NCBI RefSeq assembly: GCF_055900595.2
Contig: NZ_CM148325.1
Strand: one strand, 5' to 3'
DNA: 64,000 bases
Numbering within the stretch: position 1 is the stretch's first letter; every line of letters starts with the position of its first letter. The position numbers and the translations under genes were made by a program. Positions 54,667-58,173 of this stretch are shown here, piece after piece. The notes beneath the pieces were generated by a model that was given only the letters and a program-made list of their open reading frames with translations, was not told where the DNA came from and made no database searches.

Positions 54667-54910
54667 ACTGCTTTACACAACCTTTTTGCACTTCATTTTC
54701 CCAAGCGCGCGGCGAAAGAATAGCTGCACTGTGGCAAAGAAGAGTTTTTGGATGGAATAATATTCTTTCATAACCACATGAATATAAAGTAACTTTATCT
54801 AAAACCGTTATCATTTTGACTCAAATCAACGAAAATAATATTGCCGCCTTGAAGAAAGGAGGTATAATCCGTCGATTTTTTTTGTGGCTGCCCCTCAAAG
54901 GAGAAAGAGT

Positions 54911-55537
54911 ATGAAGATCGTGGAAGTCAAACACCCACTCGTCAAACACAAGCTGGGACTGATGCGTGAGCAAGATATCAGCACCAAGCGCTTTCGCGAA
55001 CTCGCTTCCGAAGTGGGTAGCCTGCTGACTTACGAAGCGACCGCCGACCTCGAAACGGAAAAAGTAACTATCGAAGGCTGGAACGGCCCGGTAGAAATCG
55101 ACCAGATCAAAGGTAAGAAAATTACCGTTGTGCCAATTCTGCGTGCGGGTCTGGGGATGATGGACGGTGTGCTGGAAAACGTTCCGAGCGCGCGCATTAG
55201 CGTCGTCGGTATGTACCGTAATGAAGAAACGCTGGAGCCGGTACCGTACTTCCAGAAACTGGTTTCTAACATCGATGAGCGTATGGCGCTGATCGTTGAC
55301 CCAATGCTGGCAACCGGTGGTTCCGTTATCGCGACCATCGACCTGCTGAAAAAAGCGGGCTGCAGCAGCATCAAAGTTCTGGTGCTGGTAGCTGCGCCAG
55401 AAGGTATCGCAGCGCTGGAAAAAGCGCACCCGGACGTCGAACTGTATACTGCATCGATTGACCAGGGACTGAACGAGCACGGATACATTATTCCGGGCCT
55501 CGGCGATGCCGGTGACAAAATCTTTGGTACGAAATAA
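54911..55537 (+). CDS. upp: Uracil phosphoribosyltransferase
   Basis: [25 protein letters not shown] ...; 208 aa from the ATG at 54911. Confidence 0.95.
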
Positions 55538-55552
55538 AGAATAAAAATAATT

Positions 55553-55582
55553 AAAGCCGACTTTAAGAGTCGGCTTTTTTTT
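55553..55582 (+). terminator. Stem-loop/terminator between upp and uraA
   Basis: aaagccgac-tttaaga-gtcggcttt followed by TTTTT. Confidence 0.5.
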
Positions 55583-55622
55583 GAGTAAAGCGCCTATAAC
55601 ACATAATACAGAGGATAATACT

Positions 55623-56912
55623 ATGACGCGCCGTGCTATCGGGGTGAGTGAAAGACCGCCACTTTTACAGACAATCCCGCTTAGTTTGCAACATTTGTTC
55701 GCCATGTTTGGTGCAACCGTCTTGGTGCCCGTCTTATTTCATATTAACCCGGCGACTGTACTGTTATTTAACGGTATAGGAACGCTGCTGTATCTCTTCA
55801 TCTGTAAAGGGAAAATCCCGGCTTATCTTGGTTCCAGCTTTGCCTTTATTTCACCGGTATTGTTACTGTTGCCGTTAGGGTATGAAGTCGCGCTGGGCGG
55901 CTTTATTATGTGCGGCGTGCTGTTCTGCCTGGTTTCTTTTATCGTGAAGAAAGCGGGGACCGGCTGGCTGGACGTGCTGTTTCCACCTGCGGCAATGGGC
56001 GCAATCGTTGCCGTCATCGGTCTGGAGTTGGCGGGCGTAGCTGCCGGTATGGCAGGTTTACTCCCGGCTGAAGGGCAAACGCCAGACTCCAAAACCATCA
56101 TCATCTCCATTACCACGCTGGCAGTCACGGTTTTAGGTTCCGTGCTGTTTCGTGGTTTCCTGGCAATTATCCCGATTTTAATTGGCGTGCTGGTGGGCTA
56201 CGCGCTCTCTTTCGCAATGGGAATTGTCGATACCACGCCGATTATTAATGCTCACTGGTTTGCGCTGCCAACTCTCTATACGCCGCGCTTCGAGTGGTTT
56301 GCCATTCTGACTATTCTGCCAGCGGCGTTAGTGGTTATTGCCGAACACGTAGGGCACCTGGTAGTAACGGCTAATATCGTCAAAAAAGATCTGCTGCGCG
56401 ATCCAGGTCTGCACCGTTCGATGTTTGCTAACGGCTTGTCGACCGTGATCTCCGGCTTCTTTGGCTCCACGCCAAACACCACCTACGGGGAAAACATTGG
56501 CGTGATGGCGATCACCCGTGTTTACAGTACCTGGGTTATCGGCGGGGCGGCGATTTTCGCTATCCTGCTTTCCTGCGTCGGTAAACTGGCTGCTGCTATC
56601 CAGATGATCCCATTGCCGGTGATGGGCGGCGTTTCGCTGCTGCTTTATGGTGTTATCGGTGCTTCCGGTATTCGTGTTTTGATCGAATCGAAAGTGGATT
56701 ACAACAAAGCACAGAACCTGATCCTGACTTCCGTGATTTTGATCATCGGTGTCAGTGGCGCGAAGGTAAACATCGGCGCGGCGGAGCTGAAAGGTATGGC
56801 GCTGGCGACCATCGTCGGTATCGGCTTAAGTTTGATCTTCAAACTGATTAGTGTGCTGCGACCTGAAGAAGTGGTGCTGGACGCAGAAGACGCGGATATA
56901 ACAGACAAATAA
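55623..56912 (+). CDS. uraA: Uracil:H+ symporter
   Basis: [36 protein letters not shown]; NCS2-family multi-TM permease; start chosen at the conserved Met. Confidence 0.95.
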
Positions 56913-56918
56913 TGTACC

Positions 56919-56941
56919 GACCGGGCAGTGTTGCTGCCCGG
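56919..56941 (+). terminator. Terminator after uraA
   Basis: accgggcag-tgttg-ctgcccggt hairpin. Confidence 0.45.
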
Positions 56942-57006
56942 TTCAAACATCATGGGATTCTGTGGTAAACTTCTCGCGATTTTGTGAAATCCTGGTTGAG
57001 GTATCT

Positions 57007-57708
57007 CTGAACACACCGGCACAGCTCTCTTTGCCACTTTATCTTCCTGACGACGAAACCTTTGCAAGTTTCTGGCCGGGGGATAACTCCTCTTTACTGG
57101 CCGCGCTGCAAAACGTGCTGCGTCAGGAACATAGCGGTTACATCTATCTCTGGGCACGCGAAGGCGCGGGGCGCAGCCATCTGCTGCACGCGGCTTGCGC
57201 GGAATTGTCGCAGCGTGGCGATGCGGTGGGCTATGTCCCGCTGGATAAACGCACCTGGTTTGTTCCGGAAGTGCTCGACGGTATGGAGCATTTGTCGCTG
57301 GTCTGTATCGACAACATTGAGTGTATTGCAGGCGATGAGTTGTGGGAGATGGCGATTTTCGATCTCTACAATCGAATTCTGGAATCGGGTAAAACACGGT
57401 TGTTAATCACCGGCGATCGTCCACCGCGGCAGTTGAATCTGGGATTACCGGATCTCGCGTCGCGACTCGACTGGGGGCAGATCTACAAATTGCAGCCTCT
57501 TTCTGATGAAGATAAGTTGCAGGCGCTACAGTTACGCGCGCGTTTGCGTGGTTTTGAACTGCCGGAAGATGTGGGGCGTTTCTTGCTGAAGCGGCTCGAC
57601 AGAGAGATGCGCACGTTATTTATGACGTTGGATCAGTTGGATCGTGCGTCGATTACCGCGCAACGTAAGCTGACCATTCCGTTTGTGAAAGAAATTCTGA
57701 AACTGTAG
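57007..57708 (+). CDS. hda: DnaA-inactivating (RIDA) protein Hda
   Basis: [27 protein letters not shown] ... with AAA+ region [15 protein letters not shown]; start assigned to the CTG at 57007 per the reported E. coli non-canonical start (recalled); ORF track begins at GTG 56962. Confidence 0.8.
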
Positions 57709-57740
57709 ACAAGACGTTTATTGTCGGATATGCACCCATA

Positions 57741-57773
57741 GTATTCGTCGGCCGGATAAGACGCGGCAAGCGT
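57741..57773. repeat. REP (repetitive extragenic palindromic) element
   Basis: gccggataagacgcggcaagcgtcgcatccggc matches the E. coli REP consensus GCCGGATAAG ... GCATCCGGC. Confidence 0.6.
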
Positions 57774-57813
57774 CGCATCCGGCAATGTGCTTCAACTAGC
57801 GATGGAGCACTTA

Positions 57814-58173
57814 TTAACCCACGATTTCCAGCACCTGCTCCGGTGGACGACCAATTCGCGCTTTGCCATTCGCGACCACAATCGGGCGCTCCATTAGCTT
57901 CGGATTATCCACCATTGCCTGAATCAGCGCCTCTTCGCTAAGCGAACTGTCAGCCAGGTTCAGTTCTTTATAAAGATCCTCTTTCTGGCGCATCAATTCA
58001 CGAGCGCTATTCATTCCCAGCATTTTCAGCAAATCGCGCAGCGTTGCCGCATCGGCGGGTGTCTCAAGGTAGAGCACCACTTCTGGCTCCACGCCGTTTT
58101 CTTTCAGCAGGTTCAGCGTTTCCCGGCTCTTTGAACAGCGTGGGTTATGGTAGATTTTTACCTGTTTGGTCAT
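57814..58173 (-). CDS. yfgD: ArsC/Spx-family thiol oxidoreductase (YfgD)
   Basis: 119 aa, MTKQVKIYHNPRCSKSRETLNLLKENGVEPEVV (ArsC-family CxxS motif). Confidence 0.85.
   Translation of the reverse strand: MTKQVKIYHNPRCSKSRETLNLLKENGVEPEVVLYLETPADAATLRDLLKMLGMNSARELMRQKEDLYKELNLADSSLSEEALIQAMVDNPKLMERPIVVANGKARIGRPPEQVLEIVG

Follow-up and report, generated by a model that had tools for sequence, protein, structure and literature searches.

CUG as the start codon of the DnaA inactivator gene hda in Escherichia coli, viewed against its promoter, leader, and annotation

We conclude with considerable confidence that synthesis of the E. coli DnaA inactivator Hda begins at a CUG codon at position 57007, yielding a protein of 233 amino acids (Met1-Asn2-Thr3...), and that this start would be set by the promoter, leader, and Shine-Dalgarno (SD) sequence that precede it (Table 1). 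The window that we analyzed consists of 64,000 nucleotides of contig NZ_CM148325.1 (NCBI RefSeq assembly GCF_055900595.2). Within it, the mechanical hda ORF extends on the + strand from GTG 56962–56964 to TAG 57706–57708 (248 codons), and CTG 57007–57009, from which translation reads L-N-T-P-A-Q-L-S-L, is codon 16, 15 codons in from the GTG. The original prediction had placed the opening GTG and the conserved LNTPAQLSL N terminus at these positions, and direct reading and the ORF list agree with it exactly. What look like 15 further codons upstream are promoter and leader DNA that happens to be free of stops.

CUG initiation of E. coli hda is already documented and used in curated annotation, and to this extent the result is correct but ordinary. 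The modest addition made by the present analysis comprises transcript-level grounds against the GTG start, quantitative proof of the CTG by comparison of species, and a record of how inconsistent public annotation is.

Table 1. Features of the hda start region and coding sequence (positions in the window)
Feature	Position	Strand	Remarks
uraA (upp-uraA) terminator hairpin	56919..56943	+	Fold of -21 kcal/mol, z = -5.07
Weak -35, TTCAAA	56942..56947	+	18 bp from the -10 hexamer; 4/6 match to consensus
Extended -10, TG-G-TAAACT	56963..56971	+	TG at 56963-64, hexamer at 56966-71
GTG opening the mechanical ORF	56962..56964	+	Nonfunctional as a start; contributes the TG of the extended -10; upstream of the TSS
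15-codon ORF extension	56962..57006	+	Non-coding; holds promoter -10, TSS, leader, and SD
hda mRNA transcription start site (TSS), G	56978	+	7 nt after the -10 hexamer (T56971); monocistronic; two published datasets
hda mRNA 5' leader	56978..57006	+	29 nt
Putative Shine-Dalgarno sequence, GAGGT	56998..57002	+	GAGG core ends 5 nt before CTG
CTG (CUG) initiation codon, read as fMet	57007..57009	+	CDS start in RefSeq/MG1655; EcoGene 3.0; CTG invariance
hda CDS	57007..57708	+	233 codons plus TAG; encodes DnaA inactivator Hda
QLSLPL beta-clamp-binding motif	57022..57039	+	Codons 6-11 from CTG; the true start must keep this motif
TTG, codon 9	57031..57033	+	Next canonical in-frame start; basis of a truncated 225-aa form; not the functional start

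The statement in the original prediction that E. coli Hda initiates at CUG is borne out by EcoGene 3.0, curated annotation, TSS mapping, and comparative sequence. EcoGene 3.0 names the hda CTG start and credits the direct evidence to Su'etsugu et al. (2008, J Biol Chem 283:36118). In the RefSeq records that we sampled (the identical strain, K-12 MG1655, ST131 EC958, and O157:H7), hda is 702 nt long and maps to 57007..57708. When the window is compared with curated Hda entries, as had been proposed, both MG1655 b2496/NP_416991.2 and the PGAP protein WP_001307333.1 correspond to this 702-nt CDS with its CTG start, and MG1655 and the window have identical DNA throughout the hda start region. The start codon is unmentioned in "The DnaA Tale" and in the YfdR paper.

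The accompanying expectation that automated annotation would over-extend the protein describes only part of the databases. It fails for the sampled RefSeq records and those of the homology-guided PGAP pipeline, which use the CTG, and it holds for NC_000913.2, which still carried a 747-nt hda with a GTG start in 2012, and for the exact 248-aa form, which is found on at least 1000 public contigs. At least 1000 public contigs likewise carry the exact 225-aa form, which begins at TTG 57031, hda of Klebsiella MGH78578 (KPN_02819) is given as 678 nt, and a 241-aa form is annotated in Salmonella. Mis-annotation of hda runs both ways, too long as well as too short.

In profile searches with the 248-aa ORF, NCBIfam NF005982 scored 476.6 bits (cut-off 268) and TIGR03420 scored 281.4 (cut-off 194.8), with the AAA+ DnaA-type ATPase domain (PF00308) at residues 31–174 and the Hda lid domain (PF22688) at residues 182–246. 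Residues 1–13 of this ORF fall outside the family models, as NF005982 covers residues 14–248 and TIGR03420 covers 21–247. Counted from the CTG, the N-terminal clamp motif QL[SP]LPL is present as QLSLPL at codons 6–11, residue 153 of the 233-aa form is the arginine finger of Box VII, and W156, R177, and N103 agree with published numbering. The sequence is identical to that of the WP_001307333.1 loci and of PDB 5X06, and, from this identity to the characterized E. coli protein, RIDA activity (hydrolysis of DnaA-ATP with the loaded clamp) would be expected.

Published work on the protein speaks to its length. The Hda-clamp study numbers the clamp motif 6-QLSLPL-11, with Leu7, Leu9, Pro10, and Leu11 contacting the clamp, names Arg153 as the arginine finger, and gives a mass of 26.6 kDa (PMC5397184). 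Since the calculated masses are 26,632 Da for the 233-aa form and 28,369 Da for the 248-aa form, only the 233-aa form fits these residue numbers and this mass. The crystallized protein (PDB 5X06) was a recombinant construct with a 20-residue tag fused to MNTPAQ..., and the structure models residues from 4 onward.

The open frame upstream of the CTG carries no signal by itself. By chance, 15 codons are free of stops with a probability of 0.49 and include at least one ATG, GTG, or TTG with a probability of 0.53 (computed). Similar over-extension is seen in the two neighboring genes: the mechanical upp ORF (window 54884–55537) is 9 codons too long, with GTG 54884 in place of the RefSeq ATG 54911, and that of uraA (window 55581–56912) is 14 codons too long, with TTG 55581 in place of the RefSeq ATG 55623. 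Because the hda extension matches both the chance expectation and the behavior of upp and uraA, it is uninformative on its own; over-extension in the ORF track is the norm across this locus and no peculiarity of hda. The informative features are the conserved N terminus and the CTG.

The start region is shared almost throughout the species. The interval 56850–57760 recurs with 100% identity in several complete E. coli chromosomes, and 5425 of 5426 complete E. coli genomes match it at 95% identity or more; one genome lacked a match for the hda region, and one of the matches lay on a plasmid record. The gene order in the window is upp-uraA-hda-arsC/yfgD-bepA, and K-12 hda (b2496, NP_416991.2, UniProt HDA_ECOLI; 233 aa, CTG) is the same gene, with identical promoter, leader, and start region and the neighborhood uraA-hda-arsC/yfgD-bepA in common. 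The gene 3' of hda (57814–58173, - strand) is called "yfgD, putative oxidoreductase" in MG1655 and "arsC, arsenate reductase (glutaredoxin)" by PGAP. A REP-like palindrome, GCCGGATAAGACGC/GCGTCGCATCCGGC, occupies 57751–57783 in the hda-arsC intergenic region (57731–57790). Downstream of hda, the window strain carries a single REP copy, whereas a 32-nt extra block gives MG1655, EC958, and O157 two copies, and this difference in copy number explains why most E. coli genomes match only to base 880 of the 911-base query.

Published transcript maps place the opening GTG outside both main transcripts. By SMRT-Cappable-seq, the upp-uraA transcript ends (TTS) at 2618838, which is window position 56945, with partial read-through, and a monocistronic operon "b2496" starts at 2618805 on the reverse strand of NC_000913.3, which is window position 56978. 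The upp-uraA end is 17 nt upstream of GTG 56962, and the hda TSS is 16 nt downstream of this GTG and 29 nt upstream of the CTG. Mendoza-Vargas (2009, Table S1) independently places an hda TSS at +17 relative to the GTG annotated at that time, with -35 CGGTTCAAA, -10 GGTAAACT, a spacing of 18, and an extended -10 TG marked as present; the class "downstream gene" assigned to this TSS follows from its position inside the old ORF. The GTG lies in the 33-nt gap between the two transcripts and is therefore transcribed solely on read-through upp-uraA-hda RNA. Read-through from uraA into hda made up 95 of 260 SMRT-Cappable-seq reads in one condition and 8 of 214 in the other, so hda is expressed also on a polycistronic upp-uraA-hda RNA to a degree that depends on conditions. 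Kim (2012) lists a single TSS, weak (2 reads), inside uraA and 620 nt upstream; the accessible part of that listing holds none for Klebsiella hda.

A consensus promoter/terminator scan of 56700–57200, requiring hexamer matches of at least 9/12 and a T-run after the stem, reported no promoter and no terminator in this interval. The blank result is accounted for by the hexamers of the extended -10 promoter, which total 8/12, and by the T-poor uraA terminator, a strong hairpin that lacks a U-run. The terminator's 3' arm, GCCCGGTTC (56936–56944), is conserved in 80 Enterobacteriaceae loci (the best 80 of 413 hits), and the extended -10 block reads TGnTAnACT in all 80 of them; TGnTAnAnT is present in nine loci from other families and in metagenome loci. 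Leader RNA structure was considered as a selector of the start and set aside, as the fold of 56978–57045 (-10 kcal/mol, z = +0.51) is no better than that of shuffled sequences.

To compare start regions, we used 80 species-representative Enterobacteriaceae loci, the best 80 of 413 hits, with CDS that are all distinct and proteins at 92–100% identity. Every one of these 80 species has CTG as codon 1. Among the 31 columns of invariant leucine in these best 80 of 413, codon 1 is the sole column with a single codon, the other 30 using three to six leucine codons each, and an invariant codon was found in just 2 of 162 other invariant degenerate columns. The hda start codon is thus constrained in this alignment at the nucleotide level beyond its amino-acid meaning. 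GAGGT occupies -9 to -5 in 79 of the best 80 of 413, the exception having a spacer longer by 1 nt, and the 4 nt between GAGGT and CTG vary freely. Pairing with the anti-SD is calculated at -7.0 kcal/mol for the CTG, a duplex within the top ~10% of local windows. In 46 of the 80 species, the frame upstream of the CTG reaches a stop before any ATG, GTG, or TTG is met, and the next canonical in-frame start downstream ranges from codon 9 (TTG, 42/80) to codon 38 (best 80 of 413). Starting at codon 9 or later would lose the clamp motif in part or in whole.

Upstream of the CTG, conservation has the form of discrete blocks with no codon pattern (alignment of the best 80 of 413): GCCCGGTTC at 56936–56944, TGnTAnACT at 56963–56971, a T-run near 56980, GAGGT at 56998–57002, and CTGAA at 57007–57011. 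The -10 block and the CTG are 42 to 48 nt apart, a spacing that is 0, 1, or 2 modulo 3 in 48, 21, and 11 of these 80 species; since it shifts by amounts other than multiples of three, the 45 nt before the CTG lack the behavior of coding sequence. In 60 of the best 80 of 413, the frame stays open for only 4–14 codons upstream, and in one lineage labeled E. coli (L006) a 1-nt insertion breaks the GTG frame. The residues "EV" upstream of the CTG were considered as a sign of coding and rejected: their conserved bases are the GAGGT of the SD, the third base of "V" varies, and the following codon varies freely, encoding S, P, H, F, R, I, T, A, C, or L.

Salmonella and many Citrobacter (ten loci) have an in-frame ATG 24 nt, or 8 codons, upstream of the CTG. 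This ATG is the basis of the 241-aa form and is without an SD. With a conserved TSS, its distance from the 5' end of the mRNA would be only ~6 nt.

How well could other codons in this region serve as the start? If GTG 56962 were the true or a significant second start, Hda would have 248 residues, 15 of them as an N-terminal extension, and we judge this to be very unlikely. Its canonical codon, its open frame, the 747-nt gene of NC_000913.2, and the 248-aa form on at least 1000 public contigs all speak for it, yet residues 1–13 of that form lie outside every family model, and the literature and curated annotation have rejected this start. RNA reading through from the upp promoter carries the GTG, so that transcript structure alone leaves room for a minor 248-aa isoform; both main transcripts, however, lack it, and its SD pairing is weak (-4.2 kcal/mol). 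Only 12 of the 80 species (best 80 of 413) have a GTG in frame at the corresponding -15/-16 position, and in others, L006 among them, the frame is broken by indels. What conservation it has, as "nTG", is accounted for by the extended -10, of whose motif it supplies the TG.

The downstream and leader codons fare worse. A start at TTG 57031 (codon 9), producing a 225-aa Hda as in some Klebsiella and E. coli records, is exceedingly improbable: such a protein would be without Q6, L7, and S8 of the clamp motif, of which Leu7 contacts the clamp (PMC5397184), and residues 2–8, which it would also lack, are conserved as protein across the order. The TTG is the first canonical in-frame start after the TSS, and it accounts for the 225-aa form on at least 1000 contigs and for the 678 nt of KPN_02819, but it has no SD (-1.7 kcal/mol), and codon 9 is TTG in 42, CTG in 37, and TTA in 1 of the best 80 of 413. 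We give equally little credence to another non-canonical codon of the leader, such as ATC 56989 or CTG 56992, 5–6 codons upstream of 57007. Both are in frame and on the hda mRNA in this strain, but they lack an SD, the leader begins just 11–14 nt upstream of them, and they are unconserved; in many species, in-frame stops separate these positions from the CTG, and the open stretch is at most 6 codons in 28 of the 80 (best 80 of 413).

The CUG at 57007 can also be followed beyond the Enterobacteriaceae. We examined nine genomes from five other families (Yersinia, Erwinia, Serratia, Proteus, Hafnia, Pectobacterium, Xenorhabdus, and two Pantoea) and 37 metagenome loci with 24 distinct upstream sequences; the search pattern for the latter began at codon 4 and therefore introduced no bias on codon 1. 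CTG is codon 1 in 9/9 genomes and 37/37 metagenome loci, and both sets share the architecture of TGnTAnAnT, GAGGT, a gap of 4–6 nt, and CTG-AAY. CTG and GAGGT are invariant in more than 110 distinct Enterobacterales sequences, and Hda residues 2–8 are conserved as protein across the order. Half of the distinct metagenome sequences (12/24) have no upstream in-frame ATG, GTG, or TTG before a stop.

In six of the nine genomes (start regions at about locus positions 330–410) and in 10 of the 24 distinct metagenome sequences, a G follows GAGGT, so that a GTG arises in frame two codons before the CTG. This GTG is the usual annotated start there, giving 235 aa, and NF005982 has 235 positions. The 235-aa orthologs resemble hda of the window in the arrangement of GAGGT, spacer, and CTG-AAY, in the extended -10 block, and in their N-terminal residues, and differ from it in the G after GAGGT and the resulting in-frame GTG that annotation uses. 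In relatives that retain the CTG, the -2 GTG is out of frame or missing. Serratia-like sequences have a spacer 2 nt longer, which puts the GTG out of frame, and an in-frame stop 4 codons upstream; with this layout, CTG is the sole possible start that keeps the clamp motif.

Because GAGGUG is a longer match to the 3' end of 16S rRNA, and because the CTG is invariant even alongside the GTG, CUG initiation of hda may be ancestral and order-wide in Enterobacterales, the annotated -2 GTG of Yersiniaceae, Erwiniaceae, Hafniaceae, Pectobacteriaceae, and Morganellaceae being the end of a GAGGUG SD. On the sequences at hand, we regard the chances for and against this reading as about evenly balanced. 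This reading, with 235-aa starts mis-set by two codons, may be a new point.

For E. coli, the proposed sequence of events is as follows. A sigma-70 extended -10 promoter (TG-n-TAAACT, with the weak -35 TTCAAA), directly after the uraA terminator, fires at G56978, as the two TSS datasets and conservation show. The resulting hda mRNA has an unstructured leader of 29 nt and does not include GTG 56962, which is kept as "nTG" only because its TG belongs to the extended -10 motif. GAGGU at 56998–57002 probably base-pairs with 16S rRNA at its 3' end, setting the CUG in the P site, as the invariance and spacing of GAGGU suggest. The initiator tRNA would then read CUG as fMet, use of this codon having been reported experimentally in the literature, and Hda would keep QLSLPL at residues 6–11, near its N terminus. 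That the GTG lies within the promoter, ahead of the TSS, gives a mechanistic reason for the curated start.

What might the use of CUG mean for expression? Published estimates put CUG initiation at ~1–2% of AUG, with a range of 0.02–3% across constructs, and from this efficiency we infer that Hda output is low and possibly IF3-sensitive. With such a codon, Hda would probably be scarce, and its synthesis may respond to proofreading by IF3, which has been described as a gatekeeper, with AUU and CUG in one efficiency class. The classic regulatory non-canonical start is the AUU of infC, the gene for IF3, where the codon creates a demonstrated autoregulatory loop. Like the hda CUG, the infC AUU is a weak near-cognate start, and its use is limited by IF3 discrimination. 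For the hda CUG, by contrast, low constitutive output is the simpler reading.

The second confirmed CTG start of E. coli K-12 in EcoGene 3.0 is that of yfjD, which was predicted from conservation and the ribosome binding site and confirmed by start-codon mutagenesis. Like hda, yfjD is chromosomal and has a nearby canonical codon that was mis-annotated as the start. The two proteins are unrelated, and the wrong yfjD start lies downstream (TTG, codon 9), whereas hda has been mis-annotated on both sides.

For E. coli itself, our analysis confirms a textbook-level fact of curation and changes nothing. Its practical side is that three Hda N termini (248, 233, and 225 aa) circulate widely in public databases, the 225-aa form without part of the clamp motif and the 248-aa form with 15 added residues from promoter and leader DNA, and that ab initio gene calls can hand the wrong form of Hda to constructs, models, and alignments. 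Finally, the invariance of CTG and GAGGT suggests that hda has long kept its weak start codon. If CUG initiation is order-wide, it would imply a systematic mis-annotation by two codons in the five families with 235-aa starts and, for Enterobacterales as a whole, long-term selection for a weak, IF3-sensitive start on a regulator of replication licensing.
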